Positions 1 through 16,312 of a DNA stretch of 32,480 nucleotides are shown one piece after another. This DNA comes from Anaerolineales bacterium (GTDB taxonomy: Bacteria; Chloroflexota; Anaerolineae; Anaerolineales; E44-bin32). Under the pieces are notes generated by a model that saw nothing but the letters and a program-made list of their open reading frames with translations, was not told the origin of the DNA and did not search any database. The position numbers and the translations under genes were made by a program. How positions within the stretch are numbered: the first letter of the stretch is position 1; each line of letters starts with the position of its first letter. The stretch spans positions 1 to 32,480 of the forward strand of contig DAOWMX010000001.1 in the NCBI GenBank assembly GCA_030642885.1, written 5' to 3'.

Positions 1-168
1 CTCGCCAAAAGCCGAGGTGAGAAAAAAGATGATCCAATCGACACGGACCGTTTTCGGTGCGGTTTGAAGAGGAATCCGATACCAACCTAAAACCCTGGCA
101 ATCTCCAGATCACGCGGGTCGTTCATTACAGCTACCAGGATGAGGTCTTCCGGATAGATTTCTTCCAT
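1..168 (-). CDS. hypothetical protein, N-terminal 56 codons only (gene runs off the left edge)
   Basis: ATG at 168 on the minus strand, with the frame open to position 1. It translates MEEIYPEDLILVAVMNDPRDLEIARVLGWYRIPLQTAPKTVRVDWIIFFLTSAFGE, which has protein-like composition. It is missing from the ORF track only because it is incomplete. It lies after the terminator at 242-296, so it is a separate transcription unit. No function can be assigned from 56 residues. Confidence 0.4.
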   Translation of the reverse strand, partial: MEEIYPEDLILVAVMNDPRDLEIARVLGWYRIPLQTAPKTVRVDWIIFFLTSAFGE

Positions 169-241
169 CACGCCCAATTTTGATAAGGAAACGGACCGTC
201 TTCACGACAGCAAGGAAATGTCACGACCAATCGTGCTTGGG

Positions 242-296
242 AAAAAACAGGCGGACATTCCACACTCCGTTCTGATGATGGAATGGGACATCCGCC
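242..296 (-). terminator. intrinsic terminator closing the long minus-strand gene train
   Basis: Minus-strand RNA reads GGCGGA-(UGUCC bulge)-CAUUCC, an 18-nt loop, then GGAAUGUCCGCC, followed directly by UGUUUUUUCCC. That is a 12-bp interrupted stem plus a U-tract, starting 38 nt after the stop codon at 334-336. Confidence 0.6.
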
Positions 297-333
297 TTTC
301 TTCTCAACAAGGTTCCCCTTTGTATAAGCGTCT

Positions 334-1794
334 TTAGATCAAACCTACACGCTCGTTGAACTCGACAATCAATCGATCGATCTCTGGTAGAAGCGCCTGG
401 ATCGAGGTCCAATAATCCCGATCGTACCACTGCGCCATGATTTCCTCGTAAGTCCGGCCCTGCTGCTCGACCCATGTGTAGTATTTTAAGTTATGGACAC
501 TGCGTCGATCCGTGTATCGAGTCTCGAGCAAATGATCGGTTTTAAGCCCATACAGGTCATTAGCGAAGTGAGCTGCGGCTTCTATCTTCAGATATTCACC
601 ATATTCCTCATGCATCTCTCTCAATCGGCTCTGATAAAGCTCCATAGAATCAGTAAAAACAGTGAGCACGATGTCGTTTTCGCCCAGTTCATAGTATTTA
701 GCGAACTTAATCGCCATTACGAGGTTGGCGATGCTGGAGAAGCCAAGCAGCTCCAGGTTGGCAATGAAAGCTTCGGGTACCCCTTTTTCAACTAGATACT
801 TATGCCCTGCTGGCTCGTTGAAGAGACGGGCCAGGTTGACAATCACATTGTCGTCGAGCGAAATGATCATATCGGTATTTTTTACATTGTGAATCCAGGG
901 GACATGTTTATCACCGATGCCTTCGATGCGATGTTCTCCAAAACCGTTCTCGAGCAAAGTCGGGCATTGCCAGGCTTCACCGGCAACAACCTTGCCTGAA
1001 GGGAAGATCTGCTTCAGGTATTCCCCACAAGCTAACGTCCCCGCTGACCCTGTGGTCAGCACTACCCCAGCGTAATTATCGTTCGGGCGAAGTTCCTTCT
1101 TAAGCACTTCCTCCATCGCATGTCCGGTGATGTCATAGTGCCAGAGGTAATTCCCAAATTCGTCAAACTGGTTGAAGATGACCACGTCGTCGCGGGTCTC
1201 GCGAAGTTCCCATGTCTTGTCGAAGATCTCTTTCACATTCGACTCGCTGCCAGGCGTGGCAATCACCTCACCCGCTACTTTTTCCAACCATTCGAAGCGC
1301 TCGCGGCTCATACCCTCTGGGAGGATGGCGATTGATTCACAAGCAAGCAGTGATGCATCATAGGCCCCACCACGACAGTAATTCCCCGTCGATGGCCAAA
1401 CTGCCTTGTCCTTAGCGGGATCAAATTGACCCGTGACTAGCCTCGGGACCAGGCATCCAAATGTTGCCCCAACTTTATGCGATCCCGTGGGCATCCATTT
1501 TCCAACCAAGGCGATGATCCGGGCACCCACACCGGTAAGTGAACTCGGAATCTCCAGATAGTTCACCCCTCCGAATCCACCGCCTTTCGGAGTGGGCTCG
1601 TTCTTCCACGTAATACGAAAGAGATTCTCCGGCGTCACATCCCAGAGCCCAAGTGAACTTAGCTTCTCTTTCATTGAATCAGGGATCAAACTCGGGTCTT
1701 TCATCTGCGCAAAAGTCGGGATGATGAAATTTCTCTCCCGCACTCTCTCGATGGTTTTCTCCAGCTTATCTTCATTAATTGTGAGATCGATCAT
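334..1794 (-). CDS. fold-type II (TrpB/CysK-like) PLP-dependent enzyme, 486 aa, substrate unknown
   Basis: Complete ORF with ATG at 1794. PTGSHKVGA (Lys107, codon 1474-1476) matches the PLP-lysine context of TrpB-type enzymes (TGSHK). STGNYCRGG is the Asn loop and TTGSAGT (aa 247-253) is the Gly-rich phosphate loop. A long helical C-terminal extension follows. The start overlaps the upstream GT2 stop by 20 nt. Confidence 0.75.
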   Translation of the reverse strand: MIDLTINEDKLEKTIERVRERNFIIPTFAQMKDPSLIPDSMKEKLSSLGLWDVTPENLFRITWKNEPTPKGGGFGGVNYLEIPSSLTGVGARIIALVGKWMPTGSHKVGATFGCLVPRLVTGQFDPAKDKAVWPSTGNYCRGGAYDASLLACESIAILPEGMSRERFEWLEKVAGEVIATPGSESNVKEIFDKTWELRETRDDVVIFNQFDEFGNYLWHYDITGHAMEEVLKKELRPNDNYAGVVLTTGSAGTLACGEYLKQIFPSGKVVAGEAWQCPTLLENGFGEHRIEGIGDKHVPWIHNVKNTDMIISLDDNVIVNLARLFNEPAGHKYLVEKGVPEAFIANLELLGFSSIANLVMAIKFAKYYELGENDIVLTVFTDSMELYQSRLREMHEEYGEYLKIEAAAHFANDLYGLKTDHLLETRYTDRRSVHNLKYYTWVEQQGRTYEEIMAQWYDRDYWTSIQALLPEIDRLIVEFNERVGLI

Positions 1795-2770
1795 GACGTT
1801 TCTTATTCCCTTCCTTTGGATTTATTTTGTTTTCTAAACTGATGGGATTCCGCACGATATAGAGCGGTCGGCCTTTAGCCTCATCATATATCCGACCGAT
1901 GTATTCCCCAAGGATCCCAAGAGAGATTAGCTGCACGCCTCCCAGAAATAATACCGCGATCAAGGTTGTTGCCTGACCAAGAAACGCCGGGCTTCCAACC
2001 AGTCTGAACGCAATCACGATAGGTATGGCGATAATACTCACGCCCGCTGCGAAAAAGCCGAGGTAGGTTGCGATCTGGAGCGGAAAGTAGGAAAAACCCG
2101 TGATGGCATTGAGCGCAAGGCGCAGCATTTTTCGAAACGGATACTTCGTCTCTCCAGCGAATCTCGCAGCTCGCTTATATGGCACTCCGGTTTGGCGGAA
2201 GCCAACCCACGCGGCCATGGCCCTTGGAAAACGATGCCTCTCGCGCATTTGAGACAGCGCATCCACTGCCTGCCGGTCCATCAATCGGAAATCCCCGGTA
2301 TCTAGCGGGATCTCAACATCGGTGATGCGGTTGATCAAGCGGTAAAACAAGGCTGCTGTGGTTTTCTTAAACCAGGTCTCGCCCTCGCGCTCCGTGCGCA
2401 CGGCGTACACGATTTCATAGCCCTCGCGCCATTTTTCAACCAAATCGGAGATGACCTCAGGCGGGTCCTGCAAATCAGAATCCATGATGATCACGGCGCG
2501 GCCCTGGCTGAAGTCCATCCCTGCAGTCACGGCGATTTGATGCCCAAAATTCCGGGCGAACATCACAGGTCTCACATGTGGATCGTCCACGCTTATCGCT
2601 TCGATCCACTCCGAGGAGCCATCCGTCGATCCATCGTCGATGAGAATGAGCTCCCATGGCTCACCCAGGTCATCCATGACCGTCTTCACCCGATCGTAGA
2701 GTTCCGGAAGCGACTCGATTTCGTTATAGACCGGCACTGCGACAGAGATGTTGATTTCGGATTTCGTCAT
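1775..2770 (-). CDS. family-2 glycosyltransferase, polyprenyl-phosphate sugar transferase type (GtrB/ArnC/DPM1-like)
   Basis: ISVAVPVYNE...LILIDDGSTDGS...IIMDSDLQDPPE is the classic GT2 DxD/ED pattern. Two C-terminal TM helices are present (FPLQIATYLGFFAAGVSIIAIPIVIAF and TLIAVLFLGGVQLISLGILGEYI). The ORF track starts at GTG 2779. I prefer ATG 2770 because GGAGGG sits 8 nt upstream, inside the end of the preceding gene. Confidence 0.8.
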   Translation of the reverse strand: MTKSEINISVAVPVYNEIESLPELYDRVKTVMDDLGEPWELILIDDGSTDGSSEWIEAISVDDPHVRPVMFARNFGHQIAVTAGMDFSQGRAVIIMDSDLQDPPEVISDLVEKWREGYEIVYAVRTEREGETWFKKTTAALFYRLINRITDVEIPLDTGDFRLMDRQAVDALSQMRERHRFPRAMAAWVGFRQTGVPYKRAARFAGETKYPFRKMLRLALNAITGFSYFPLQIATYLGFFAAGVSIIAIPIVIAFRLVGSPAFLGQATTLIAVLFLGGVQLISLGILGEYIGRIYDEAKGRPLYIVRNPISLENKINPKEGNKKRHDRSHN

Positions 2771-2775
2771 TGGCT

Positions 2776-4071
2776 TCACCCTCCGCCGTTCTTCTTCGCG
2801 CCGTCATCCAAAGCACTTTCGAGTGCTTTAAGCGTCGGTTCAATCACAAGCGGTTCACCGGCGGCATCCATCGCCCGCGCTACATCTTTCAACCCATTGC
2901 CGGTATTAAGCACAACGACACGGTCTCCCTGCGCAAGGAGGTTCTTCTCAACTGCGGCTAACAACCCGGCATAGGCAGCCGCTCCTGCGGGTTCGGCAAA
3001 CACAGCCGCCTCGCGGCCAAGCTCTGCAATCGCCTCTAAAATAGCGGAATCTGGAACTGCTATGTAAGCTCCACCGGTCTCCGTTGCGGCTCGCAAGGCG
3101 CGTAAACCATCACGCGGCTGGTCCACCGAGATGCTATCAGCCAGCGTATCTGCGCTCACCGGTTGGATCTCCTCCACGCCATCCTGGAAGGCATTATAAA
3201 TCGCAGCCGATCCTTCAGATTGGATCCCATAAAGCCGTGGGATTCTGTCGATCCAACCCAGGTTATGTAAATCTTTAAAGCCTTTATGCAAACCGGAGAT
3301 GATGTTCCCATCCCCAACGGACACGACAACAGCATCCGGCGTGGGCCATCGCTTCTTTCCAGAGCTCTCACCATCGTTTTCAATCGATAATTGTTCACAA
3401 ATTTCGAAGGCGGCGGTTTTCTTGCCCTCGGCTGTGAACGGGTTGAAACCCGTATTTCGGCAATACCAACCGAATCGCTCCGCCGCCTGAATGGTGAGAT
3501 CAAAGGCATCATCATAGGTGCCTTCGACGAGGACCACCCGTGCACCGAATATCAGGAGCTGCGCGATCTTTGCCGGTGGGGCTGTCGCCGGGGCGAGTAT
3601 TACCGCGGGCATCTTTGCCGCTGCCGCCATGCCTGCCAGCGCTGCTCCAGCGTTGCCGGTTGAAGCGGTAACGATTACTTCCACACCGATCTCCTGCCCA
3701 CGGGCAACTGCGACGGCGCTGGCGCGGTCTTTAAAAGAAGCGGTTGGGTTTCGCCCATCATCCTTCAACCAGAGCTTCTCCAGACCTAATTTCCCGGCGA
3801 TCGGCTGCAAATCGAAGAGCGGCGTCCAACCCACTGCCCTCAATGGAGTCCCCAAATGCCCCGGGTCTTGTACGGGGAGGAGCGGTAAATATCGCCAGAT
3901 GGAAGATTCCACTGAACGTCTGATGTCACCGGGTGAGACATGGCGACGAATCCTATCGTAATCAAGGATTACGTCTAAATTCCCTCCGTCATGGGGGCAG
4001 GTATATTGGACATCTTCTGGCCCAAGCTCCTGACCACAGATGGAACAGCGATAGCCTGTAAAGTTCGTCAT
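2776..4071 (-). CDS. threonine-synthase-family PLP enzyme with N-terminal Zn-ribbon (archaeal/thermophile type)
   Basis: The N-terminus YRCSICGQ...YTCPHDGG is a CxxC...CxH ribbon. TASFKDR carries the PLP lysine and ASTGNAGAA is the Asn loop. Length is 431 aa. The ATG at 4071 abuts the stop of the upstream permease gene (4072-4074) with 0 nt between them. Confidence 0.8.
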   Translation of the reverse strand: MTNFTGYRCSICGQELGPEDVQYTCPHDGGNLDVILDYDRIRRHVSPGDIRRSVESSIWRYLPLLPVQDPGHLGTPLRAVGWTPLFDLQPIAGKLGLEKLWLKDDGRNPTASFKDRASAVAVARGQEIGVEVIVTASTGNAGAALAGMAAAAKMPAVILAPATAPPAKIAQLLIFGARVVLVEGTYDDAFDLTIQAAERFGWYCRNTGFNPFTAEGKKTAAFEICEQLSIENDGESSGKKRWPTPDAVVVSVGDGNIISGLHKGFKDLHNLGWIDRIPRLYGIQSEGSAAIYNAFQDGVEEIQPVSADTLADSISVDQPRDGLRALRAATETGGAYIAVPDSAILEAIAELGREAAVFAEPAGAAAYAGLLAAVEKNLLAQGDRVVVLNTGNGLKDVARAMDAAGEPLVIEPTLKALESALDDGAKKNGGG

Positions 4072-5040
4072 TTACAGCCCTCGTTCACCGCGGATATAAG
4101 GCAAGCCCAGCGCTGCAGGTGAGCCCATGCGCTTGCGGATCGCCTCGCGTGAGCCAATCACAAGAACAACGATCGTAAATGCATAGGGCAGCATCTGCAG
4201 GAAAAATCCCCAATAAGGGTTGTAATAGAAGGGATTCCTAAGACCGAATATCTTCATCGGCCCCTGGATATCAAGGATCATTCGACGGAGAGCGCCGAAA
4301 GCGTAAGATCCTCCGGCTGCGCGTATCGGATCCCACTGTGCGAAAATCACCAGACCGATGGCGATCCACCCCTGGCCGGATGTGGTGAGATGGCTGAACC
4401 ACCCCGGAGAAACCGCCAGGCTGATCGTCGCCCCGGCAACCCCGGCGAGCATCCCGCCGACCAGAACATAGAAATAGCGCAAGCGGTTTACATTTATACC
4501 CAAGGCATCCGCGGCTGCCGGATACTCACCAATCGCTCGCAAATGCAGCCCCGGCCGCGTGCGGTTGATGTAATACCAGGCGAGAGGAACCAGCAGATAC
4601 CCCAGATAAACCATCACGCTTTGGTCTTCAAACATGATAGGGCCCAGGAAGGGAATGCTCACCAGACCTGGAATGCTAAACGAGGGTAAAAGGGCAACAG
4701 CCCCAGCCTTGCTTAACCCCTCGCCGAAAACCAGGCTCAGGCCTGTGCCGAGGAAGGTCAGAGCCAGGCCGCTTACAACCTGGTCGGCCTGAAGCTGGAT
4801 CGTGATTATTGCATGGACCTGGCTCAGCAGGCCAGCAGCGAGCATGGCGACAAACACTCCAAGCCAGGGATTGCCGGTCGCTAAAGCTGTTTTATAGGCG
4901 CTCATGGCGCCGATGAGCATCATCCCCTCAAGGCCAAGGTTTAGAATCCCCGATCTTTCGGTGAAGATCTCCCCGATGGTTGCGAATAAAAGAACCGTTC
5001 CGGAGGCGATGCCAGCATGCAGGATGATGATTGGATCCAT
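4072..5040 (-). CDS. ABC transporter permease (BMP/nucleoside-type importer, second permease)
   Basis: 322 aa, polytopic and hydrophobic throughout. It starts 2 nt after the stop of the first permease. This is the typical second membrane subunit of BMP-family uptake systems. Confidence 0.85.
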   Translation of the reverse strand: MDPIIILHAGIASGTVLLFATIGEIFTERSGILNLGLEGMMLIGAMSAYKTALATGNPWLGVFVAMLAAGLLSQVHAIITIQLQADQVVSGLALTFLGTGLSLVFGEGLSKAGAVALLPSFSIPGLVSIPFLGPIMFEDQSVMVYLGYLLVPLAWYYINRTRPGLHLRAIGEYPAAADALGINVNRLRYFYVLVGGMLAGVAGATISLAVSPGWFSHLTTSGQGWIAIGLVIFAQWDPIRAAGGSYAFGALRRMILDIQGPMKIFGLRNPFYYNPYWGFFLQMLPYAFTIVVLVIGSREAIRKRMGSPAALGLPYIRGERGL

Positions 5041-5042
5041 GT

Positions 5043-6176
5043 CTACGCCTCCTGCCCGATTTGCACAAGCCTTATCCGATTGCGGAGTAAGAAATCACTT
5101 CCAATAAGACAGACCAGGATGATCCCCTGGATAAGCATAGGAATACCGGATGGTTGGATCTCCCTGCCAGCCAGGAGCAGCCCACCGAAGAGAATCGAAA
5201 TCGGAACGACCAAAATAGGATTGAGTTTCGCCAGCCAGGCGATGATGATTCCCGTGAAGCCATAGCCGGAGGAGATCGCCCCCTGAAGGCGGTGTACAAC
5301 CCCAGAGATCTCCAACATGCCACCCAACCCCGCCAGTGCACCTGAAAGCATCATCACCAGGATCGTATTCCTGACGATGTTGATCCCCGCGTAGCGCGCG
5401 GCGCGCGGGTTGTCTCCAATCAAGCGAATCTCGTACCCCCACCGGCTGCGGTACATAATCCACCACACCACCCCAGCGGCAATTAAGGCTATGACGAATC
5501 CTAGATGGATGGTAAGCCCTCGAAACATTGGCACCTGAGCTGAGTAATCCGTCAATCGCGGCAGCCAGGCCGTTTTGGGAAACTGACGGCTCATCTGGAA
5601 TCCGCCTTCGGACCATACATCGAAGATGAAATAGTTGTTCCACGCCACAGCGATGTAGTTCATCATTAGCGTCGATATGATTTCATTGACATTGTATTTC
5701 GCTTTCAAATAGCCAGGAATAAATCCCCATAAAGCGCCCGCGAGCATACCCATGATCATCATCGCCGGGATCATCAGCCACGGCGAAGTCTCTGGCGGAA
5801 GAATGGGTGTTAGCACGACTAAACTTGCCCCGAAGGCACCCAAGTAGAATTGACCTTCAGCGCCAATATTCCACAGGCGCATCCTGAAGGCGACAACCGC
5901 TGCCAAACTGACGAGAATGAGCGGAGTAGCTTTTACCAAAGTGTCGGAGAACACGCCGATATCACCAAAAGCAGCTTTGGCCATGAAGGCATAGGCACGG
6001 AAGGGATCTCCACCCACGAGCATTAATACGATCCCTCCAAGAACCAATGCAAAAGTTACAGCGCCAAGCGAAACGATTAATCCCAGCCACCCCGGTTGCT
6101 TCATGCGGGGTTCCATCCGCAAACGGAACCGTGCTCCACCACGGTATTGAGCAAATAATGAAGGCTTGGTCGTCAT
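5043..6176 (-). CDS. ABC transporter permease (BMP/nucleoside-type importer, first permease)
   Basis: 377 aa, polytopic. Its start overlaps the ATPase stop by 4 nt (ATGA). Confidence 0.85.
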   Translation of the reverse strand: MTTKPSLFAQYRGGARFRLRMEPRMKQPGWLGLIVSLGAVTFALVLGGIVLMLVGGDPFRAYAFMAKAAFGDIGVFSDTLVKATPLILVSLAAVVAFRMRLWNIGAEGQFYLGAFGASLVVLTPILPPETSPWLMIPAMMIMGMLAGALWGFIPGYLKAKYNVNEIISTLMMNYIAVAWNNYFIFDVWSEGGFQMSRQFPKTAWLPRLTDYSAQVPMFRGLTIHLGFVIALIAAGVVWWIMYRSRWGYEIRLIGDNPRAARYAGINIVRNTILVMMLSGALAGLGGMLEISGVVHRLQGAISSGYGFTGIIIAWLAKLNPILVVPISILFGGLLLAGREIQPSGIPMLIQGIILVCLIGSDFLLRNRIRLVQIGQEA

Positions 6177-7744
6177 TGACTCACCTTCCTTGCCTCGACC
6201 AGATCCTCCTGGCGAGTCCCGGTCATCATTAGACCCAATGTTTCAGGGTCAGCTTCCCTCACCTCACCCATGATTTCTCCCTCATAAATCACGTAAACAC
6301 GATCCGAGAGCGAGATGAGTTCTTCCAATTCCTCCGAGATAAGAAGGATCGCAGCGCCATTCTCGCGCTGCTGGAGCAGCAAGCGTTGAACGGATTCTAT
6401 CGCCCCAACGTCCAACCCGCGCGTTGGCTGCATGGCAATCATCAATTTCGGCTCACAGGAGATCTCGCGCGCAAGAATCAAACGTTGTAGATTTCCTCCC
6501 GAGAGCAAACGTGCAGGGGTTTCCACTGTCGGCACCATGATGTCATAGGCTTCACGCAGCGTTTCTGCTTGAGTGGTAGCAGAGAGGCTGTCAATGGACC
6601 ACCCTTTCGAGATAGGCGGTTTCCGATACCCTTTCATGATCAGGTTGTCAGTGATGCTGAGGTTAGGGGCAGTACCGACATGGGTCCGATCCTCAGGGAT
6701 GTGTGAAACGCCCGCATCGATTATCTGTCTTACATGGCTTGACCTGCGCTGCCCTGAGATACTTCCATCAATGAGCACTTGCCCATGCACAATCACTTTT
6801 CCTTCTGTGATCGGGCGAAGACCGGTAATAGCTTCAGCCAACTCCGCTTGCCCATTTCCAGCCACACCGGCCAAGCCGACGATCTCACCAGCCGCAACGT
6901 GTAGAGATAAGCCGCGTAAAGCCTGAATGCCTTTATTGTTCAAAGCCTTGAGCCCTTCCACAGCCAGAACAGTGTCCCCAGGAGTATGCTCGACCTTATT
7001 CAATTGGAAGAGTACGTCGCGACCTACCATCTCGCGCGCCAGGTCCTGCTTCGTTATCTCTTTCGTAAGCAAACCCTCTGCGCTGAGCTTCCCCTTGCGC
7101 AAGACTGTAATCCGATCTGCAATCGCCATGACTTCGTCGAGCTTATGGCTGATGAAGATGATAGATTTCCCCTCGGCAATCATGGATCGAAGTGTAGTGA
7201 ACAGTTCTTGAATCTCCTGCGGGGCCAAGACCGCTGTTGGCTCGTCCATGATGAGCACTTTCGCTCCACGATAGAGCATCTTTAGTATCTCCACACGCTG
7301 CTGCTCACCGACGGACAATTGCCAGATTCTTGCTCGTGGGTCGACCTGTAAACCATACTGTTCCCCGAGTTCGGTGATGATTTGATCATAATGAGATAAA
7401 TTCATATTAAAGCGCGGTTCATCGAGGCCCAGGAGGATATTTTCCGTCACGGTTTGAGTGGGCACGAGCATAAAGTGCTGGTGGACCATGCCAATCCCGT
7501 AGTTGATGGCATCTCGCGGGGATCGCAGATCAACAACCTCACCATCAACCCGGATCGTACCTTCATCGGGCCTATATAATCCCGTGAGGATATTCACCAG
7601 GGTGCTCTTGCCTGCGCCGTTTTCGCCCAACAAGGCGTGGATCTCACCAGACCGCAAGGTGAAATCAACCTGGTCATTCGCCAAGACACCGGGAAACTGT
7701 TTAGAAATCCCTCTTAACTCAACAACATTGAGGTGGTCATCCAT
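6173..7744 (-). CDS. ABC transporter ATP-binding protein with two fused ATPase domains
   Basis: Walker A GENGAGKST and GVAGNGQ, signature LSVGEQQR and LSGGNLQR, Walker B LIMDEPT. The track starts at ATG 7777. I prefer ATG 7744 (MDDHLNVVELRGISKQF) because GGAG lies 7 nt upstream, while 7777 sits in the loop of the 7764-7792 hairpin. Confidence 0.85.
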   Translation of the reverse strand: MDDHLNVVELRGISKQFPGVLANDQVDFTLRSGEIHALLGENGAGKSTLVNILTGLYRPDEGTIRVDGEVVDLRSPRDAINYGIGMVHQHFMLVPTQTVTENILLGLDEPRFNMNLSHYDQIITELGEQYGLQVDPRARIWQLSVGEQQRVEILKMLYRGAKVLIMDEPTAVLAPQEIQELFTTLRSMIAEGKSIIFISHKLDEVMAIADRITVLRKGKLSAEGLLTKEITKQDLAREMVGRDVLFQLNKVEHTPGDTVLAVEGLKALNNKGIQALRGLSLHVAAGEIVGLAGVAGNGQAELAEAITGLRPITEGKVIVHGQVLIDGSISGQRRSSHVRQIIDAGVSHIPEDRTHVGTAPNLSITDNLIMKGYRKPPISKGWSIDSLSATTQAETLREAYDIMVPTVETPARLLSGGNLQRLILAREISCEPKLMIAMQPTRGLDVGAIESVQRLLLQQRENGAAILLISEELEELISLSDRVYVIYEGEIMGEVREADPETLGLMMTGTRQEDLVEARKVSQ

Positions 7745-7763
7745 ACTCAGCTCCGAAGATGAC

Positions 7764-7792
7764 GGGTCGACGCCCATATCGGACGTCGACCC
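7764..7792 (-). promoter_or_regulatory. intercistronic stem-loop between the binding-protein gene and the ATPase gene
   Basis: GGGTCGACG (7764-7772) and CGTCGACCC (7784-7792) form a perfect 9-bp GC-rich inverted repeat with an 11-nt loop. On the coding (minus) strand it is preceded by an A-run and is not followed by a U-run. Confidence 0.5.
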
Positions 7793-7814: not shown

Positions 7815-9017
7815 CTACTCCGGCAATTCCGCAGTAATGCCCTCAGCCCACCACTTCATGCAGTACTCGCAGCCTAACCCAAACTCGGGGAAGGCATCCA
7901 GGTCAACTTGCTCAAGCGCTTTACCTTCGGGAACAATCAGATTGCCTTGATTGTCATAGATCGGGCCTGAGAACACATCAAAGCGGGTGAAATCTCCCAC
8001 CAGGGTGTCGGCCACCAGGTCACGAACAGCCTGGATCACATCTTCCGGAAGCTCAGCAACACCGGGCTGCAACTCCTCACCCTCCATGAAGCCGTACAGG
8101 CCGAGTGCTCCGGTATCACCATCAAAGTAATCCCAACCGGGGGTATAGGTCCCCGCGATCACGCCTTCGGCGATCTCCGCGTAAACCGGTCCCCAAACCC
8201 AGTAGGGCGCGGTCAGGCAGGCGTCGATTTTGCAGGAGCCGTACCAGTCATAGGTGACGCCCCATTTGCCCTTTTCCTGCGCTACATCAGCAACTGCTGG
8301 GGTGTCAGCACCCGTGAACACTACCTGTGCACCGGCATCGAACAACGAGGCTGCGGCCTCTTTCTCGATGATGGGATCATGCCAGGTGTTGATCCAGCGC
8401 ACGTCAAGCGTGCACTCCGGGCAGGTTTCCCTCATCCCCAACGCAATAGCGTTGCCGAGGCGGATCTCCTCCGGGATCGGGAAAGTCGCCATGTACCCCA
8501 GCTTCGGGTTTCCATCCATTTGTGCCCGTGCGCCAGCAAGCATCCCTGCCATGTACTTCATGTTTTCCATGGCACCGAACAGGTTGCCGAAGTTGGTCAT
8601 GTTGGATTTTATGCCCGAGATGTGGATATACGTGACATCCGGGAATTCTTCGGCGAGGACTTCCATGGGGTCCATGTAGCCAAAGGATGTGCCAAAGATC
8701 AGATCAAAGCCTTTCCGCGAGAGGCTGCGGAAAATCTGCTCCGAGTCAGCTCCCTCGGGTACGTTCTCGATATAGGCTATGTGGACATCCGGAACATTCT
8801 CTGCGACATATTCCAGGCCTTCGAAGTGCGCCTGGGACCAGCCACCATCGTCGTGAGGACCAATCAGGACCATGGCAATATTGAACTTGCCCTCTTCCAC
8901 CGCGGGGATCTCGAAACCTCCCACGACTTCCGGTGCCTCTTCCCCACCGCAGGCTGTAAGTGCCAGAGCCAACAGGGTAAGGAGAACAGCTAGGCGTAAC
9001 GCCATACTTCGTGACAT
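7815..9017 (-). CDS. BMP-family ABC substrate-binding lipoprotein (purine nucleoside-binding type)
   Basis: 400 aa. Signal peptide with lipobox LALALTAC-GG. The mature part has the BMP/PnrA-like pattern (NIAMVLIGPHDDGGWSQAHFEGL...). AGAGGAG lies 7 nt upstream of the ATG. Confidence 0.85.
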   Translation of the reverse strand: MSRSMALRLAVLLTLLALALTACGGEEAPEVVGGFEIPAVEEGKFNIAMVLIGPHDDGGWSQAHFEGLEYVAENVPDVHIAYIENVPEGADSEQIFRSLSRKGFDLIFGTSFGYMDPMEVLAEEFPDVTYIHISGIKSNMTNFGNLFGAMENMKYMAGMLAGARAQMDGNPKLGYMATFPIPEEIRLGNAIALGMRETCPECTLDVRWINTWHDPIIEKEAAASLFDAGAQVVFTGADTPAVADVAQEKGKWGVTYDWYGSCKIDACLTAPYWVWGPVYAEIAEGVIAGTYTPGWDYFDGDTGALGLYGFMEGEELQPGVAELPEDVIQAVRDLVADTLVGDFTRFDVFSGPIYDNQGNLIVPEGKALEQVDLDAFPEFGLGCEYCMKWWAEGITAELPE

Positions 9018-10096: not shown

Positions 10097-11077
10097 CTAG
10101 CGCATCGTTAATGCCATGACGGCTTTTTGTGCATGCAGACGATTCTCTGCCTCATCGAACACGACGCTATGCGGTCCGTCGATAACGCCATCCGTGACCT
10201 CGATGTTACGATCGGCGGGAAGGGGATGCATGTAAATTGAATCGGCTTTGGCCAGCCCCATTTTCTTCTCATCCGTAATCCAGTCTTTATACTTATCCTG
10301 GATTTTCTTCCCTTCCTCGGGATCTGTCGTCGTCAATAAAGGTCCCCAGGACTTAGCGTAGACGATGTCAGCATCTTTTACCGCCGCATTCATATCATCG
10401 ACGACTTCAAACCCTGTGCCGAATTTCTTCGCCTGCGCCTTCGCTTGATCCATGATCTCCGGCATCAACTTGAATTCTGGAGGATGAGCCAAAACAACAT
10501 CGAGACCAAAGCGGGGCATCTGTAAGATTAGCGATTGCGGCACTGAGATAGGTTTCAAGTAGGAAGATGCATAAGCCCAGGAGACCACCATCTTCTTTCT
10601 GCGCAGATCCCTGCCCTTCTTCTCGATGATCGTCATGAGATCGGCCAGGATCTGGAATGGATGGTAGAACTCACACTGCATGTTGAAGACAGGCTCGCGC
10701 GAGGCTTCCGCGACCAGGTTTAGGTACCGATTTCCAATCCCCCAATCGACGTGCCGGATTGCGATTCCATCGAAATAACGACCGAAGATCTCCCCCATCT
10801 CCTTCTCGGTATCTCCATGAGAAATCTGGGTTGTCCGCGATTCGATAAAAGCGGCATGCCCTCCCAGCTGAGCCATCCCCGCCTCAAACGAACCGCGTGT
10901 GCGAGTGCTAGAGAAGAAGAACAACATCGCCAGAACCTTATCTCGTAAGTAAGGATGGGGTTCTCCAAGCGCCCGCTTGCGCTTAAGATCAAAAGCTACT
11001 TCCAGAACGGTTTCGACCTCCTCACGGGTAAAATCGAGGTCACCGATGAGGTCTCTTCCACGTAAATCTGTTTGCAT
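10097..11077 (-). CDS. ATCase/OTCase-superfamily transcarbamylase of the ArgF'/YgeW-like (acyl-ornithine, knotted) branch, substrate unknown
   Basis: 326 aa. The carbamoyl-phosphate motif is FSSTRTRGSFE. HPFQILADL replaces HPTQ, and MHPLPADRNIEV replaces HCLP. IVYAKSWG stands where OTCases have DxxxSMG. From memory, the segments PVFNMQCEFYHPFQ, MVVSWAYASSYLKPISVPQS and VTDGVIDGPHSVVFDEAENR parallel Bacteroides/Xanthomonas ArgF'. Confidence 0.75.
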   Translation of the reverse strand: MQTDLRGRDLIGDLDFTREEVETVLEVAFDLKRKRALGEPHPYLRDKVLAMLFFFSSTRTRGSFEAGMAQLGGHAAFIESRTTQISHGDTEKEMGEIFGRYFDGIAIRHVDWGIGNRYLNLVAEASREPVFNMQCEFYHPFQILADLMTIIEKKGRDLRRKKMVVSWAYASSYLKPISVPQSLILQMPRFGLDVVLAHPPEFKLMPEIMDQAKAQAKKFGTGFEVVDDMNAAVKDADIVYAKSWGPLLTTTDPEEGKKIQDKYKDWITDEKKMGLAKADSIYMHPLPADRNIEVTDGVIDGPHSVVFDEAENRLHAQKAVMALTMR

Positions 11078-11264: not shown

Positions 11265-12218
11265 TCACTCCATAGCGCCGAGGACGGACGCCAACAGCCC
11301 CATGCGCATGACCACACCATTGAACGCTTCCAGCCAGTATCGAGACCAACGTGTGGCGTCAACATCGGGAGGAATCTCATCCATCCGCGGCAGGGAGTGC
11401 AATAGGATCGCGTCCGACTTTGCTTTACCGGACAGCAGTTCACGCGTGATCTTGTAATTCGCGGGTGTCAAGCCGACGTCCCCATCCCGTTCGTCACGGG
11501 ATTTGGTGTAATCCGGCTGGACGACCGGCTCTACCAAGATTACATCCGCTTCACTAATCGCTTGCTCCACATGTTCTGCCTCAGCGAAATCGAGACTGAG
11601 TAGTTCAAGCTCTTCTTTAAACTCATCCGTGAGAGACATCTCAGGCGGGGATACGAACGTGATCGGACAATCAAATTGGGTCAGGCCATAGGCTAAGGAG
11701 TGCATTGTTCGCATGCGCATATCGCCAACAGCCAGCCAGCGAAGCCCATCTAGACGGCCTTTCTCCTGATGTACAGTGTACAGGTCGGTGAGTATCTGAG
11801 TCGGGTGTTCCCCCCAGCCATCACCGCCGTTGATAATCGGAATAGAAGCCCATTTCGCGGCCTCATGCGGCGCGCCCTGCTCGAAATGCCGCATCACGAT
11901 CACATCACCGTAGAACTCCAGCATCTTCACTGTGTCCTTAATCGACTCCTGATAGTAATCTCCCGCCCGAGTCATCTTTGCATCGGCAAAGCCTGTCACT
12001 TGCCCGCCCAGGCGTATCATCGCTGCTTCGTGAGCAAGACGGGTTCGAGTGCTTGGTTGGTAGAAAGCTGTAACCAGCGTTTTCTCTGATAGCAAATCTG
12101 TATTGCGTCGATCGCGCGCAAATGGCGCCAAACGGTCACACACTTCGAAAATTCGGTAATACTCTTCCCTCTCAAATCCTTTTAGGGAAAGTATGTCTCG
12201 TCCAGAAAAACTGCGCAT
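11265..12218 (-). CDS. aspartate-carbamoyltransferase-like (PyrB paralogue) transcarbamylase, non-canonical second-substrate site
   Basis: QPSTRTR, VMRH, GEHPTQ, GDMRMRTMHS and HSLPRMDEI match ATCase catalytic-chain motifs. The (T/L)RxQxER aspartate-binding segment is replaced by VEPVVQPDYTKSRDERDGD. The track start 12290 gives a basic, non-homologous extension. I use ATG 12218 (MRSFSGRDILSLKGF) because GGAGGAG lies 8 nt upstream. Confidence 0.75.
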   Translation of the reverse strand: MRSFSGRDILSLKGFEREEYYRIFEVCDRLAPFARDRRNTDLLSEKTLVTAFYQPSTRTRLAHEAAMIRLGGQVTGFADAKMTRAGDYYQESIKDTVKMLEFYGDVIVMRHFEQGAPHEAAKWASIPIINGGDGWGEHPTQILTDLYTVHQEKGRLDGLRWLAVGDMRMRTMHSLAYGLTQFDCPITFVSPPEMSLTDEFKEELELLSLDFAEAEHVEQAISEADVILVEPVVQPDYTKSRDERDGDVGLTPANYKITRELLSGKAKSDAILLHSLPRMDEIPPDVDATRWSRYWLEAFNGVVMRMGLLASVLGAME

Positions 12219-12292
12219 GAATCTACTCCTCCATTTCCTTTTTTTGTACTCGTCGTTTTGTCTGTCCCTAATTTTTCCCCCTTGCCTCACGC

Positions 12293-13036
12293 TTATGGCA
12301 ACCGACGGTTAATATGAAATCGAAAGGTGCCTGGCAAGAAATAACTATACGTGTGGTCGATCACTTCTCCATCTTTTGAATAAAGCTGGGCTTCGAAGAA
12401 CAGCAAGGCATCCCCGCGCTGAATTTTCAGATGACGGGCCACCTCCGGGGAAGCCGATACTGCGGTGATATCTGTGGGAGATTGCCAGATTTCAGGTTCA
12501 TCTCGCTGAAGGAGTACTTCCAGGACCGAACCCCGGAATTCACCTGCTTTGATATCCACAGGCAGATATTTTTCCGGGAGAATGTCAATAAGGAAGGCAA
12601 CAGGTCTCCCTTCTGTCAAGATCACCCTCGAGATTTCGATCAATGGAAGTTCATTTCCCCATCTGAATCGCTGCAGTTCTTCCTCTGTCGCTGTCCGCTC
12701 CCTGATTTCCAGATCCCCCGTCTCGACCTTAAGGCCGATCCGATCTGCGAGCCGCTCGATACTCTCCAGGGTTTCGAGCCCGGTGTCAATCACATGAGGT
12801 AGTTGAGTAACGTACGTGCCCACACCCTGACGACGTACGATCCTCCCTCGACGCTCGAAGATTCTCATCGCCTCGCGCAGGGTCGCGCGTGAAACCCCAA
12901 GGCTGCGGGCTAATTTTGGTTCAGACGGAAGATACGTCCCTGGTTCGACGCTCTCAAGGATCTCAGAAAGAGTCTCAGCTGTACTTTCATAAAGAGGGCG
13001 GCGCTTTGTCTCTTCTCGTATTTCCATTCGACTCAT
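12293..13036 (-). CDS. GntR-family transcriptional regulator, HutC subfamily (winged HTH plus UTRA-like effector domain)
   Basis: The N-terminal YLPSEPKLARSLGVSRATLREAMRIFERRGRIVRRQGVGTYV is a GntR wHTH. The roughly 160-aa C-terminal domain fits UTRA size. The track ORF (start 13204) would overlap the adenine deaminase gene by 122 nt with a Cys/Trp/Leu-rich extension. I use ATG 13036; ATG 13027 is an alternative. Confidence 0.8.
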   Translation of the reverse strand: MSRMEIREETKRRPLYESTAETLSEILESVEPGTYLPSEPKLARSLGVSRATLREAMRIFERRGRIVRRQGVGTYVTQLPHVIDTGLETLESIERLADRIGLKVETGDLEIRERTATEEELQRFRWGNELPLIEISRVILTEGRPVAFLIDILPEKYLPVDIKAGEFRGSVLEVLLQRDEPEIWQSPTDITAVSASPEVARHLKIQRGDALLFFEAQLYSKDGEVIDHTYSYFLPGTFRFHINRRLP

Positions 13037-13082
13037 TTCTTCACTCGCGTTGTCAGCTTCATGGGACCGATATTTTAAGAGC

Positions 13083-14879
13083 CTAATCCCCGCCTTCCAC
13101 CACAGGAATAACTTCAAAACGGTTAACGTCAACGAGACCTTTATCGGAGATTCGCAGATCGGGAATAACAACGAGTGCCAGAAGACTGAGCTGCATATTG
13201 GCATTGTTCAAGTTGCAGCCACATTCTTTAAAAGCGTCGAGAACGCGTTCAGCCTTCTCAGCGACGATCTCTGCCCGTTCTTCCGACATCAAGCCCGCGA
13301 TCGGCAGCTCTACCAAGGCGACAGTTTTCCCCTCGCGGATAACGATCTGTCCACCGCCTACCTCCGCGAGCCGATTGGCGGCCAGAGCCATATCCGTCTC
13401 ATTTGTCCCGACGACGATCATATGGTGAGAATCATGGGCTACGGTTGAGGCGATGGCGCAGGGGCGATCGAAACCAAACCCGTGGACAAACCCTACTTGA
13501 ACTTCGCCCGTCGCCTGGTGACGCTCAACAAGCGCAACCTTGGCGAGATCCTGTTTGATATCAACTGCGATCGTTCCATCTACCGCCTTCATTTCCATCT
13601 TAAGATGTTGCGTCGGAGCCTGGTTCTCAATGACTCCGATGACGTTGACAGTAAAAACACCATCTTTTGAGACATCGACAGAAAAATCTTCTGCGCGGAG
13701 TTCTTTTCCAAGGCGGACGGAAGACTTCACCTCAGGCGGATATACAAAATCGGGGATATCCACCAGAAGTTCTCCATCCTCGGCAATGAGCCTGCCACGT
13801 GCAAAGACCATCTCTGCAGCAAAGGATTCCAGCTCGCCTACGAGCAGTAGGTCTGCATACCGCCCGGGAGCGATCTGTCCGATATCGCCGGCGAGGCCAA
13901 AATGCTCCGCGGTGTTGAGCGTTGCCATCTGAATAGCGGTGATCGGCTCCAGACCCTGCTCGATTGCATGCCGCACAACTCGATCCATGTGCCCATCATG
14001 CACTAATGTCCCGGAGTGGCTGTCATCGGTTACCAGGAGGAAATGGCGAGGGTCGAGACCCTCTTCCGTGACAGCTCGCACCTGACTCGCCACGTCATGC
14101 CACGCTGACCCGAGCCTCATCATCACCTTCATGCCCTGGCGGGCACGCGCGAGCGCATCCTCCAGACGGGTGCCCTCGTGGTCATCTTCCGGTCCCCCGG
14201 CAACGTAACCGTGGAACGGCTTACCCAGGTCAAGCGAGGCATAGTGCCCTCCGATGACCTTTCCTGCAGCGCGGGTTTCCGCCATCTCCAGGTGCATTTT
14301 CTCGTCACTGTTAAAGACACCCGGGAAGTTCATCATTTCGCCTAACCCAATAATCCCCGGCCAGGACAGCGCCTCGGCAACTTCCTCAGGGCCAATCGCG
14401 GCGCCGGGCGTCTCCAAGCCCGGAGCGGATGGCACACAAGATGGAACCTGTACCCACACATGAATAGGCTGAATAGCCGCCTCATCTGCCATGAGACGCA
14501 CACCATCAAGCCCGAAGACATTTGCGATCTCATGTGGGTCGATGAACATCCCTGTCGTGCCGCGCGGGGCCACCGCACGTACAAACTCTCCAACCGTGAT
14601 CATGCCCGACTCAACATGCATATGGCCATCCAACAAGCCGGGGACAATATGGCGGCCTTCTGCCTCGATAACTCGAGTGTCAGGCCCTATGATGTGACTC
14701 GCGTCCTGGCCTACAAAGGCAATGCGTTCCCCAAAAATCGCAACGGAGATTCCTGGGAGGATTTCCCCGGACTGAACGCAAACCCATCGACCGCCGCGTA
14801 TGACGACATCCGCCGGTTTTCTGCCCATGGCGACATCGACGAGTGATCGGCTTAATTCGCTCAAACTTTTAGTATCCAT
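13083..14879 (-). CDS. ade: adenine deaminase
   Basis: About 598 aa. VIRGGRWV...ILPGISVAI, the HMHVESG metal motif, FIDPHEIANV and the large C-terminal domain are typical of Ade/AdeC. I prefer ATG 14879 (MDTKSL) because AGAGAGGAAG lies immediately upstream. GTG 14894 from the track has no SD sequence. Confidence 0.85.
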   Translation of the reverse strand: MDTKSLSELSRSLVDVAMGRKPADVVIRGGRWVCVQSGEILPGISVAIFGERIAFVGQDASHIIGPDTRVIEAEGRHIVPGLLDGHMHVESGMITVGEFVRAVAPRGTTGMFIDPHEIANVFGLDGVRLMADEAAIQPIHVWVQVPSCVPSAPGLETPGAAIGPEEVAEALSWPGIIGLGEMMNFPGVFNSDEKMHLEMAETRAAGKVIGGHYASLDLGKPFHGYVAGGPEDDHEGTRLEDALARARQGMKVMMRLGSAWHDVASQVRAVTEEGLDPRHFLLVTDDSHSGTLVHDGHMDRVVRHAIEQGLEPITAIQMATLNTAEHFGLAGDIGQIAPGRYADLLLVGELESFAAEMVFARGRLIAEDGELLVDIPDFVYPPEVKSSVRLGKELRAEDFSVDVSKDGVFTVNVIGVIENQAPTQHLKMEMKAVDGTIAVDIKQDLAKVALVERHQATGEVQVGFVHGFGFDRPCAIASTVAHDSHHMIVVGTNETDMALAANRLAEVGGGQIVIREGKTVALVELPIAGLMSEERAEIVAEKAERVLDAFKECGCNLNNANMQLSLLALVVIPDLRISDKGLVDVNRFEVIPVVEGGD

Positions 14880-14918
14880 CTTCCTCTCTTTCACAATGTA
14901 GGGTATGGAACCAATAGC

Positions 14919-16298
14919 TCAATCCCTATTCGCTAGATTTAATGCCACGCGATTATGGGTCTCTATTAGCGATGGAAGTTCGACGGGCTGCAGCTCCCCC
15001 TCTGAAACTACCGCCCGGCCATGGACATAGTTGTAATCGACATGCACAGGATTACAGAAGAACATCGCCGCTAATGGATCGTGAAGCGCACCCGAAAAGT
15101 CAACACGGTCTAAGTTCATAGCGATGAAATCCGCGCACATACCTTCCTGGAGGGCTCCGATATCATCCCTCCCTAAAACCTCCGCCCCTCCAATGGTAGC
15201 CAGAGCGAGAACCTGACGGGCAGTCAGCAATGATTCCTCGCCGTCGATCTCCGGAGCTACAGCAGCTCCAACGCGCGAGAGCAGCATTGCCTGGCGTGCT
15301 TCTGCGATCAGATGAGAGCTATCATTGCTTGCCGAACCATCAACGCCGATACTAACTTTCACACCTCGTGATAAAAACCGTCGAATAGGCGCGATTCCTG
15401 AGGCGAGGCGCATGTTGGATGATGGACAATGCGCTACACCCATACCACCATCCGCCATCCGCTCGACCTCTTCGGGGTTGATATGAACAGCATGCGCAAA
15501 CCAAACATCCTCCCCGGCCCAATCCAGCATCTCAACGTATTCCAGGGGACGATGCCCAAACTTGTTTACACAAAACGATTCTTCATCTAGCGTTTCCGCA
15601 AGATGCGTATGGAGATGAACACCGCTAGACCTGGCAAGAGCTGCACTCTCCCGCATGAGATCCGGCGTAACTGAGAACGGCGAGCAAGGGGCAACGACGA
15701 TCCTGACCATCGCTCCCGGGTTGGGATCATGATAGGTCTCGATCACCCGCTGTGTATCCTTGAGAATAAACTCCTCTGCCTCCACAACATCATCGGGGGG
15801 CAGCCCGCCCTTGCTTTCCCCCAGGCTCATGGAGCCTCTACTGGCATGCAGGCGCATACCCATGCCTCGAGCCGCTTCGATCTGATCATCGAGTCGACAG
15901 TCATTTGGGAATATATAATGGTGGTCAGATGTCGTCGTACAGCCAGATAATGCCAGTTCAGCTAACCCTAACTGGGTGGATACACGGATAGCTTCCGGTG
16001 TAAGCCCGGCCCAAATAGGATATAAGGTTTTTAACCAACTGAAGAGATCGGCATCCTGCGCTTGAGGAATTACGCGCGTGAGGGTTTGGTACAGATGATG
16101 ATGTGTGTTTACCAGACCGGGGAGAACAATATGTCCATCGAGGTCGAGGATTTCATCGGCTTTCTTGGGAAGTTCGTCAGTGGGACCAACCTGCTTGATC
16201 CAACCGTTTTCGGCGTAAAAACCTCCATTTGGGATCTCACGCCGTTGACCATCCATCGTGACAAGAAGCATGGCATTACGGATCAATAACGTCGCCAT
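14919..16298 (-). CDS. amidohydrolase of the 8-oxoguanine/guanine deaminase (SsnA/AtzB-like) group
   Basis: LPGLVNTHHHLYQTLTR, HLHTHLAE, FAHAVH and VDGSASND are the metal and catalytic motifs of the COG0402-type deaminases. I use ATG 16298 (MATLLIRNAMLL) because GGGAGGG lies 4-5 nt upstream. The track start 16352 falls inside the promoter. Confidence 0.8.
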   Translation of the reverse strand: MATLLIRNAMLLVTMDGQRREIPNGGFYAENGWIKQVGPTDELPKKADEILDLDGHIVLPGLVNTHHHLYQTLTRVIPQAQDADLFSWLKTLYPIWAGLTPEAIRVSTQLGLAELALSGCTTTSDHHYIFPNDCRLDDQIEAARGMGMRLHASRGSMSLGESKGGLPPDDVVEAEEFILKDTQRVIETYHDPNPGAMVRIVVAPCSPFSVTPDLMRESAALARSSGVHLHTHLAETLDEESFCVNKFGHRPLEYVEMLDWAGEDVWFAHAVHINPEEVERMADGGMGVAHCPSSNMRLASGIAPIRRFLSRGVKVSIGVDGSASNDSSHLIAEARQAMLLSRVGAAVAPEIDGEESLLTARQVLALATIGGAEVLGRDDIGALQEGMCADFIAMNLDRVDFSGALHDPLAAMFFCNPVHVDYNYVHGRAVVSEGELQPVELPSLIETHNRVALNLANRD

Positions 16299-16312
16299 CA
16301 GCCCTCCCTGGA

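Follow-up and report, generated by a model that had tools for sequence, protein, structure and literature searches.

What is a gene for a predicted polyprenyl-phosphate sugar transferase doing between the genes of two soluble pyridoxal phosphate (PLP) enzymes? The question is raised by positions 334 to 4,071 of a 32,480-nucleotide stretch of Anaerolineales (Chloroflexota) DNA (GenBank assembly GCA_030642885.1, contig DAOWMX010000001.1, positions 1 to 32,480; hereafter, the window), where a threonine-synthase-like gene (ThrC-like), a family 2 glycosyltransferase gene (GT2), and a gene for a 486-residue PLP enzyme (PLP486) follow one another. The window is contig C318 of genome G000, a metagenome-assembled genome (MAG) that is 82.6% complete. 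Here, we report that these three genes are predicted not to form one functional unit. The triplet is probably a composite, in which the two PLP enzymes serve purine catabolism in place of the enzyme YgeX and GT2 is an unrelated passenger gene of envelope glycosylation.

It was not until 2025 that the anaerobic uric-acid pathway was worked out, and then in gut Proteobacteria and Clostridia alone. In the published scheme, YgeW uses phosphate to remove the 2-ureido group of 2,3-diureidopropionate, which leaves carbamoyl phosphate and albizziin; the 3-ureido group is then hydrolysed by YgeY, and 2,3-diaminopropionate is broken down by YgeX to pyruvate and ammonia (PMC12507026). Mutants of Escherichia coli in ygeX are reported to build up diaminopropionate when given 13C-urate (bioRxiv 10.1101/2025.04.24.650524). 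Hydantoinases of the HyuA type are D-specific, and YgeX takes both isomers (PMC12507026). Clusters of SsnA with an F420 enzyme have been described in Chloroflexota (PMC12507026).

Far from closing a self-contained importer operon, the triplet sits midway in a purine-catabolic supercluster, because the genes around it are those of the reductive uric-acid (2,8-dioxopurine) pathway. This gene train recurs in a genus-mate (G001) on a 50-kb contig (C5), where it runs on beyond PLP486, on the same strand, with, in order, a gene here called u192, D-hydantoinase/HyuA (TIGR02033, 518 bits; cutoff, 393), the flavin adenine dinucleotide (FAD) subunit and the molybdenum cofactor subunit of xanthine dehydrogenase (XDH), and an NADPH-F420 reductase. 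SsnA follows about 15 kb beyond the F420 reductase stretch, with CofC/CofD, a luciferase-like oxidoreductase, and XdhD-YgfM, and thus SsnA, HyuA, XdhD-YgfM, and the triplet all stand on one contig. G000 carries a matching SsnA block on contig C251 (nitroreductase, CofD, CofC, luciferase-like oxidoreductase, an 834-residue YgfK-like Fe-S flavoprotein, SsnA with 513 bits against a cutoff of 455.5, thioesterase, YgfM-like, and a 1,001-residue XdhD-like protein) and HyuA on contig C297 (positions 558-1946; 538 bits). Since their gene order matches that of the genus-mate contig, C318, C251, and C297 are probably neighbours in the genome. The window itself holds a module of carbamate kinase and carbamoyltransferase genes, which is co-located with ThrC-like and PLP486 across phyla. 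Its ornithine-carbamoyltransferase-like (OTC-like) product scores 176 bits against the YgeW model, below the cutoff of 500, yet is the best match in the genome.

YgeX was not found in G000 at its 82.6% completeness, the best genome-wide match to the YgeX model (NF006058) being 66 bits, nor in five close relatives, two of them single-contig assemblies. Co-occurrence was then scored in an even sample of 151 Chloroflexota genomes (completeness, ≥85%). An SsnA-type gene was present in 32/151, and none of these 32 has YgeX, which was detected in 5 of the 151. PLP486 was found in 19 genomes, 17 of them with SsnA, and the ThrC-like orthologue in 23, of which 22 carry SsnA. Among PLP486 carriers of five other phyla, all have SsnA-type genes, and YgeX was not found. 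One sampled genome, G161 (same order, family f15), is the sole one to combine a strong YgeX match (518 bits) with PLP486 and GT2; SsnA and the ThrC-like orthologue are absent from it, and it is an exception to the proposed replacement of YgeX.

The neighbourhoods of PLP486 tell the same story in gene order. At 100 loci, its recurrent neighbours were ThrC-like (58 loci), u192 (50), HyuA-type amidohydrolase (45), GT2 (41), carbamate kinase (33), and the XDH molybdenum cofactor subunit (24), followed by carbamoyltransferases, the XDH FAD subunit, a YgeY-family M20 hydrolase (TIGR03526, 470 bits), and purine deaminases. Across 80 loci of many phyla, the gene stands beside those for carbamate kinase, OTC-like and aspartate-carbamoyltransferase-like (ATC-like) proteins, XDH, HyuA, YgeY, and deaminase. 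Either PLP gene can also be without the other: ThrC-like occurs with SsnA and without PLP486 in five genomes (G064, G115, G131, G160, and G177), lying within ~230 bp of SsnA in two of them (G115 and G177), and PLP486 has no ThrC-like gene within reach at three loci (L110, L118, and L120). Because each occurs with SsnA in the absence of its partner, the two enzymes may be alternative, stereo-specific, or sequential. The original prediction had proposed, among other options, a role for the PLP pair in making or degrading a beta-substituted alanine from an imported base. In outline this survives: the reductive urate pathway, to which the pair is linked, ends in the beta-substituted alanines albizziin and 2,3-diaminopropionate, and YgeX was found neither in the SsnA-positive genomes of the sample nor in the relatives examined.

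The ThrC-like protein was aligned to solved threonine synthases and to 50-odd orthologues. It shows full-length homology to the ThrC proteins of Thermus thermophilus (1UIM) and Bacillus subtilis (6CGQ; E = 8e-56), which are of the PRK08197 type with an N-terminal zinc ribbon, and it shares their ribbon (C9, C12, C25, and H27), their STGN loop, and their SFKDR motif with the PLP lysine (here within PTASFKDRA). Against the matching subtype model PRK08197 its score (281.8 bits) is below the cutoff of 303, and against the broad model TIGR00260 its score (193.2 bits) exceeds the cutoff of 167.1. Two motif arginines are replaced in every orthologue, that of NPxR (NPFT or NPYM versus NPYR/NPHR in the ThrC proteins of the PDB) and that of AIRIGNP (Ser or Ala, as in SISVD), and conserved aspartates have been gained (GDGN and SVDxPRDG). 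In the T. thermophilus enzyme, the arginines of these motifs bind the phosphate of the substrate, and that of NPxR is Arg160. With its cationic character lost, the pocket would become acidic or neutral, which would suit a substrate bearing an amino or ureido group rather than one bearing a phosphate.

The original prediction had suggested looking for a second, canonical thrC, and there is one. G000 has four ThrC-family genes, and the product of the one on contig C259 scores 542 bits against PRK08197 (cutoff, 303) and keeps both arginines (EPYRVEG and GIRVP), where the window protein has NPFTAEG and SISVD. Because of this canonical ThrC and of the two arginines lost in the orthologues, the window protein is best read as a threonine synthase paralogue and not as the housekeeping enzyme. 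The remaining two ThrC paralogues are a 374-residue protein on contig C296 (L004:1444-2568), encoded beside a MoaD/ThiS-like sulfur-carrier gene and fabF, and a 561-residue protein with a C-terminal extension on contig C122 (L003:507-2192), encoded beside a histidine kinase gene. Against the YgeX model NF006058, the ThrC-like protein scores 54.3 bits (cutoff, 276).

PLP486 comprises a core resembling CysK and cystathionine beta-synthase (CBS) at residues ~80 to 390, flanked by conserved extensions of ~80 residues (N-terminal) and ~95 residues (C-terminal, helical). Its AlphaFold2 model (mean predicted local distance difference test score, 94) is matched best in the PDB by CysK and beta-cyanoalanine synthase (template modelling score, ~0.85 over the target; 22-25% identity), and the core is likened to 3VC3, 2Q3D, and 6C2H by its PLP lysine, its STGN substrate loop, and its G-S-x-G-T phosphate loop. 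In the family alignment, K107 (the PLP lysine, in PTGSHKVG), S135-T136-G137-N138, and G249-S250-x-G252-T253 are invariant. Unlike the CysK and CBS cores, PLP486 has ~175 extra residues in its two extensions, a TrpB-like GSHK context for the lysine, and a catabolic gene setting; structure comparison returned no solved protein with these extensions. Its relatives are named cysteine synthase in databases, yet it scores 83.4 bits against the cysK model (cutoff, 350.95) and is 486 residues long versus ~300 to 330 for CysK-type proteins. NF006058 gave no match. The family is compact (334 clusters at 50% identity with E < 1e-30 among 1.8 billion representatives), with identities of 64-71% in MAGs that carry the labels of many other phyla and 75-88% among members of the genus. 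No strongly hydrophobic 19-residue stretch was seen in either PLP enzyme (maximum Kyte-Doolittle means of 1.58 and 1.61, close to the threshold of 1.6). A lyase acting on diaminopropionate or albizziin requires chemistry by way of an aminoacrylate, as fold-type II enzymes perform it. The beta subunit of 2-amino-4-ketopentanoate thiolase (OrtB), suggested by the length of PLP486 and the label "PLP-dependent lyase/thiolase", was considered and dropped on gene context: the surroundings are devoted to purine catabolism, and none of the neighbours is an ornithine-pathway gene.

For GT2, the picture is that of an ordinary envelope enzyme. It aligns with Synechocystis GtrB (sll0501, 5EKP; relatives include ArnC, PgfS, CsbB, and DPM1) at E = 1e-92 and with no gaps over residues 4 to 312. 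In GtrB, which takes UDP-Glc as its donor, D94, D96, R122, R125, K132, R200, and R290 have been shown to be essential, and D157, the proposed catalytic acid, gives an inactive enzyme when changed to N (PMC4728340). All eight equivalents are kept in GT2 (numbered from the ATG at 2770): the DXD motif and proposed catalytic aspartate of the GT-A domain (D97, D99, and D160), and the lipid-phosphate acceptor arginines with the juxtamembrane residues (R125, R128, K135, R203, and R293). Hydropathy peaks at residues ~233 to 258 and 266 to 289 bear out the two C-terminal transmembrane (TM) helices of the original prediction. Scores stay below the equivalog cutoffs (PgfS, 272 versus 500 bits; ArnC, 206 versus 529 bits), and no GtrA flippase or partner glycosyltransferase of fold C (GT-C) was found in the window. 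GT2 is thus classed, from its sequence, as a putative GtrB-type polyprenyl-phosphate hexose transferase, which differs from GtrB in sitting inside a catabolic operon.

Its distribution separates it from the pathway. A single GT2 orthologue is present in 39/41 relatives (56-96% identity versus ≤41% for paralogues), be the PLP pair present or not. In five genomes (G015, G027, G032, G037, and G040), GT2 and PLP486 are on separate contigs, and in another (G036) they are 3.2 Mb apart. Three genomes of 91-100% completeness (G025, G030, and G035) keep GT2 and lack PLP486, the ThrC-like orthologue, and SsnA. Gene order in G030 (deaminase, carbamate kinase, GT2, u192, and then membrane-protein genes) suggests that ThrC-like, PLP486, and HyuA were cleanly lost around GT2. 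In the 151-genome sample, 27 of the 42 GT2-positive Chloroflexota lack PLP486, and in family f30 GT2 is present in 10/10 genomes and SsnA in 0/10. Because the orthologue persists in genomes without the pathway and at unlinked loci, we read GT2 as a housekeeping passenger gene that would be independent of the pathway. Nothing was seen in favour of the suggested recruitment of GT2 for the glycosylation of a small molecule, as every lipid-phosphate acceptor residue of GtrB is retained and GT2 orthologues occur at unrelated loci in relatives, an outcome that the original prediction had itself named as refuting; the further suggestion of an accidental and tolerated juxtaposition fits GT2 alone, whose orthologues stand at such loci and in relatives without the PLP pair and SsnA. 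The GT2 puzzle resolves as ordinary.

All genes from 16352 down to 334 are on the minus strand (open reading frames [ORFs] of the window), as follows.

14919-16352, minus strand: 8-oxoguanine-deaminase-family amidohydrolase (PRK08203, 672.9 bits; cutoff, 532)
13083-14894, minus strand: adenine deaminase (TIGR01178, 508.9 bits; cutoff, 472.5)
12293-13204, minus strand: GntR/UTRA regulator (profile matches), forming with both deaminases the head of the gene train
11265-12290, minus strand: ATC-like carbamoyltransferase (Pfam/NCBIfam)
10097-11077, minus strand: OTC-like carbamoyltransferase (Pfam/NCBIfam), nearest YgeW relative in the genome
9122-10081, minus strand: carbamate kinase (above the family cutoff)
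7815-9017, minus strand: binding protein of a BMP-family ABC importer (Pfam Bmp)
6173-7777, minus strand: ATPase of the same importer (Pfam ABC_tran)
5043-6176 and 4072-5040, minus strand: two permeases of the same importer (Pfam BPD_transp_2)
2776-4071, minus strand: ThrC-like fold-type II PLP enzyme, 431 residues (Pfam PALP, 259.8 bits)
1775-2770, minus strand: GT2, GtrB-type, 331 residues from the ATG at 2770 or 334 residues from a GTG at 2779 (Glycos_transf_2)
334-1794, minus strand: PLP486, 486-residue fold-type II PLP enzyme (Pfam PALP, 45.2 bits)
240-297, minus strand: terminator-like hairpin with U6, 3' of PLP486 (dG, −26.5 kcal/mol; z, −4.89; 0/200 shuffles as stable)
1-168, minus strand: u192, N-terminal 56 codons, cut at the contig end (61% identity to the G030 member)

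The three ORFs of the triplet, their strand, and their junctions are as originally described, and the domain calls were borne out by Pfam and NCBIfam (PALP, Glycos_transf_2, and PALP). The ATG of ThrC-like (4071-4069) immediately follows the permease stop codon TAA (4074-4072). GT2 has two start options, the ATG at 2770, 5 nt past the ThrC-like TGA, and the GTG at 2779, which overlaps that TGA by 4 nt. The ATG is preferred because a GGAGG within the 3' end of ThrC-like lies 9 nt upstream of it and just 1 nt from the GTG, which is too near. PLP486 overlaps the end of GT2 (1775) by 20 nt. Tight or overlapping junctions are usual within operons and carry no information on common function, so conservation is given the weight here instead. 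Upstream, the GntR regulator and adenine deaminase genes, each taken as its longest ORF, overlap by ~120 nt; the true start of the regulator is probably further downstream, because its GntR domain begins only at residue 72. A vitamin B6 link between the importer and the PLP enzymes was considered and set aside, all matches to the NCBIfam "putative B6 ABC transporter" models being far below their cutoffs.

Conservation of the triplet was assessed by sorting loci into classes from tblastn hits, ORF calling having sometimes given antisense ORFs in GC-rich loci. The triplet was contiguous in 35 of the 79 related loci with enough upstream DNA, and four more had one extra gene between ThrC-like and GT2. 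Outside Anaerolineae, ThrC-like stood directly beside PLP486 without GT2 at 8 loci, and PLP486 stood alone at 20. Conservation of the triplet as a unit therefore holds within Anaerolineae and breaks down outside the class.

The stretch separating the two PLP genes looks, to judge from these comparisons, much like an insertion hot spot. A transporter gene of the AI-2E/PerM family lies between ThrC-like and GT2 in several Anaerolineae families (L038, L041, L042, L054, L064, L084, and L132), and an IS4 transposase (G036) and an M55 D-aminopeptidase (G040) lie between ThrC-like and PLP486; at L042 and L036, an M55 gene is nearby in the cluster and not between the PLP genes. On the other side, u192 encodes a soluble protein of 170 to 220 residues, conserved in Chloroflexota, that in relatives comes after PLP486 and before the HyuA-type hydantoinase. 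It directly follows GT2 in G025 and G030, both without PLP486. Searches of u192 gave no Pfam or NCBIfam match, and its Atlas neighbours were only Chloroflexota hypothetical-protein clusters; the neighbours u201, u535, and u396 had no Pfam match above the curated cutoff and no NCBIfam match above the cutoff. A further string of genes was noted at L057, L058, L060, L097, and L127. In relatives it comes after HyuA and encodes three multi-TM proteins (14, 7, and 13 TM helices; one matches Proton_antipo_M), a coiled-coil protein, and a protein with a SelB-resembling N terminus. In G030, this string is still attached to GT2 and u192 after the loss of the catabolic genes. The purine genes appear to be interleaved with an older housekeeping gene string.

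Set against the urate cluster of Escherichia coli and Clostridium (xdhD-ygfM, ygfK, ssnA, hyuA, ygeW, ygeY, ygeX, and yqeA; PMC12507026; bioRxiv 10.1101/2025.04.24.650524), the G000 system is alike in its SsnA, HyuA, and XdhD-YgfM, all above family cutoffs, and in its carbamate kinase with a YgeW-like carbamoyltransferase. It is alike in logic as well, with an opening to 2,3-diureidopropionate, an ATP-yielding phosphorolytic de-ureidation, and a final fold-type II PLP enzyme. It is unlike that cluster in having two unrelated fold-type II families where YgeX was not found in G000, a second (ATC-like) carbamoyltransferase where YgeY was not found, F420-linked reductase genes beside the YgfK-like protein, and a BMP-family ABC importer, purine deaminases, and an embedded GtrB gene. 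The ATC-like carbamoyltransferase seems to complement the M20 hydrolase of the YgeY family in its distribution: the ATC-like gene is in the clusters of G000 and G001, searches for YgeY found none in G000, G001, or G039, and YgeY adjoins the OTC-like gene in G038 (C1:400928-403928) and G036 (C1:684250-686405), with no ATC-like gene seen within the 17.6 kb examined in G038. This suggests that the ATC-like enzyme may replace YgeY hydrolysis of the 3-ureido group by phosphorolysis, which would give a second ATP.

The PLP pair belongs to these clusters. What it acts on, and how the two enzymes share the work, we infer from the following scheme. Imported purines would be deaminated and hydroxylated to urate, which would be reduced and opened to 2,3-diureidopropionate by XdhD-YgfM, an F420-dependent reductase, SsnA, and HyuA. 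The OTC-like and ATC-like carbamoyltransferases, with carbamate kinase, would remove both ureido groups phosphorolytically, yielding ATP. Albizziin and/or 2,3-diaminopropionate would then be converted to pyruvate and ammonia by ThrC-like and/or PLP486 in place of YgeX. These two share with YgeX a fold type and a place in a urate-degradation cluster, and the reaction proposed for them is the same. GT2 would act as an undecaprenyl-phosphate hexose synthase for extracytoplasmic envelope glycosylation; it would have lodged 3' of ThrC-like early in Anaerolineae, been kept by descent, and be expressed as an operon passenger with no role in purine chemistry.

Several observations weigh against this scheme. 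Ten of the 32 SsnA-positive Chloroflexota have neither ThrC-like nor PLP486 at the thresholds used, and therefore the replacement of YgeX is not universal, or a third solution exists. Neither PLP family is a homologue of YgeX beyond the shared fold, and a single lyase step would call for one PLP enzyme, not two. The co-occurrence counts lack phylogenetic independence, a point to be read with the recurrence of the pattern across classes and phyla. As for GT2, in family f14 it stays beside ThrC-like though PLP486 has moved away, and G070 keeps the order ThrC-like, GT2, PLP486-like (44% identical), and SsnA. The ThrC-like/GT2 linkage thus appears old and more persistent than a neutral accident would usually show. 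An essential gene dependent on an upstream promoter would be held in place as GT2 is, and a regulatory tie of GT2 to the operon is conceivable.

Among other explanations, one keeps the PLP pair in the purine pathway and gives it beta-replacement chemistry, from albizziin or diaminopropionate to serine, cysteine, or a similar product, or else a racemising role or one enzyme each for the D- and L-isomers. Enzymes of beta-replacement (CysK, beta-cyanoalanine synthase, and CBS) are the nearest to the PLP486 core, a pair is conserved in a place that YgeX fills alone, and, with HyuA-type hydantoinases D-specific and YgeX open to both isomers, there could be a stereochemical need for two activities. 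With each PLP gene occurring beside SsnA in genomes that lack the other, and no genes for the supply of a second substrate seen in the clusters, we regard this as unlikely. A broader form, in which two new activities jointly close the urate pathway in a manner unlike YgeX (for example, a remodelled ThrC eliminating the beta-amino or ureido group and a CysK-like enzyme capturing the aminoacrylate or the other stereoisomer) while GT2 couples envelope glycosylation to purine-regulated expression, is decidedly unlikely. That GT2 is functionally tied to the PLP enzymes or the pathway, by glycosylating an intermediate or by coupling envelope glycosylation to purine availability, would accord with the tight junctions, including the 20-nt overlap with PLP486, with the contiguous triplet at 35/79 loci, and with a ThrC-like linkage kept across families f1, f14, f15, and f18. 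We hold it to be very improbable, given an orthologue retained in genomes without the pathway and at unlinked loci, a PLP pair that occurs without GT2 in other classes and phyla, the intact acceptor and juxtamembrane residues of GtrB, and unrelated genes inserted at the same spot.

Two further explanations concern the PLP enzymes alone. PLP486 might serve the molybdenum hydroxylases, for instance by delivering sulfur or selenium to an XDH-type cofactor, and take no part in carbon flow. It does directly follow XDH subunit genes in several phyla (L110, L118, and L120), the downstream gene whose N terminus resembles SelB in some relatives (a resemblance read from the sequence) would suit such a role, and CysK-type enzymes do sulfide chemistry. 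Yet PLP486 is equally often beside carbamate kinase, carbamoyltransferase, and HyuA genes, the known sulfur- and selenium-delivery lyases are of fold-type I, and the missing YgeX would be left unexplained; the chance that this is correct seems very small indeed. Least credible of all is that the database labels are right, with ThrC-like a threonine synthase isozyme, PLP486 a cysteine synthase, and biosynthetic genes in the operon by chance. The ThrC-like score against TIGR00260 (193 bits, above 167) and the public name "cysteine synthase" for PLP486 relatives speak for the labels. They are contradicted by a canonical ThrC and ordinary CysK-sized paralogues elsewhere, by ThrC-like orthologues without the two arginines of canonical ThrC, by a PLP486 score of 83 bits where 351 is asked for cysK, and by the fact that both genes track SsnA and not amino-acid biosynthesis genes.

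The composite reading, with a PLP pair in place of YgeX and GT2 as a passenger, bears on how the pathway is recognized. The pathway is known, and its Chloroflexota cluster variant is in print at the Pfam level only; no description of the proposed replacement of YgeX, or of what PLP486 is, turned up in the searchable literature. ThrC-like or cysteine-synthase-like enzymes are unmentioned in PMC12507026 and bioRxiv 10.1101/2025.04.24.650524, and a full-text literature search returned no relevant described cluster of carbamate kinase, carbamoyltransferase, and a threonine-synthase-like gene. The published survey marked "YgeX" in other phyla by Pfam PF00291 alone, and such marking would hide a replacement of YgeX.

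GT2 adds a caution, in that long-conserved gene order and tight coupling of translation can keep a housekeeping gene inside a catabolic operon to which it is unrelated. In Chloroflexota and members of several other environmental phyla, two uncharacterised PLP families, labelled "threonine synthase" and "cysteine synthase", are found instead of YgeX. One of them, PLP486, for which no structure has been solved, is a compact family that is very conserved from phylum to phylum (64-88% identity). If its reaction were assigned, the pathway of environmental anaerobes would be complete, a widespread misannotation would be put right, and the fold-type II enzymes would gain a new reaction specificity.

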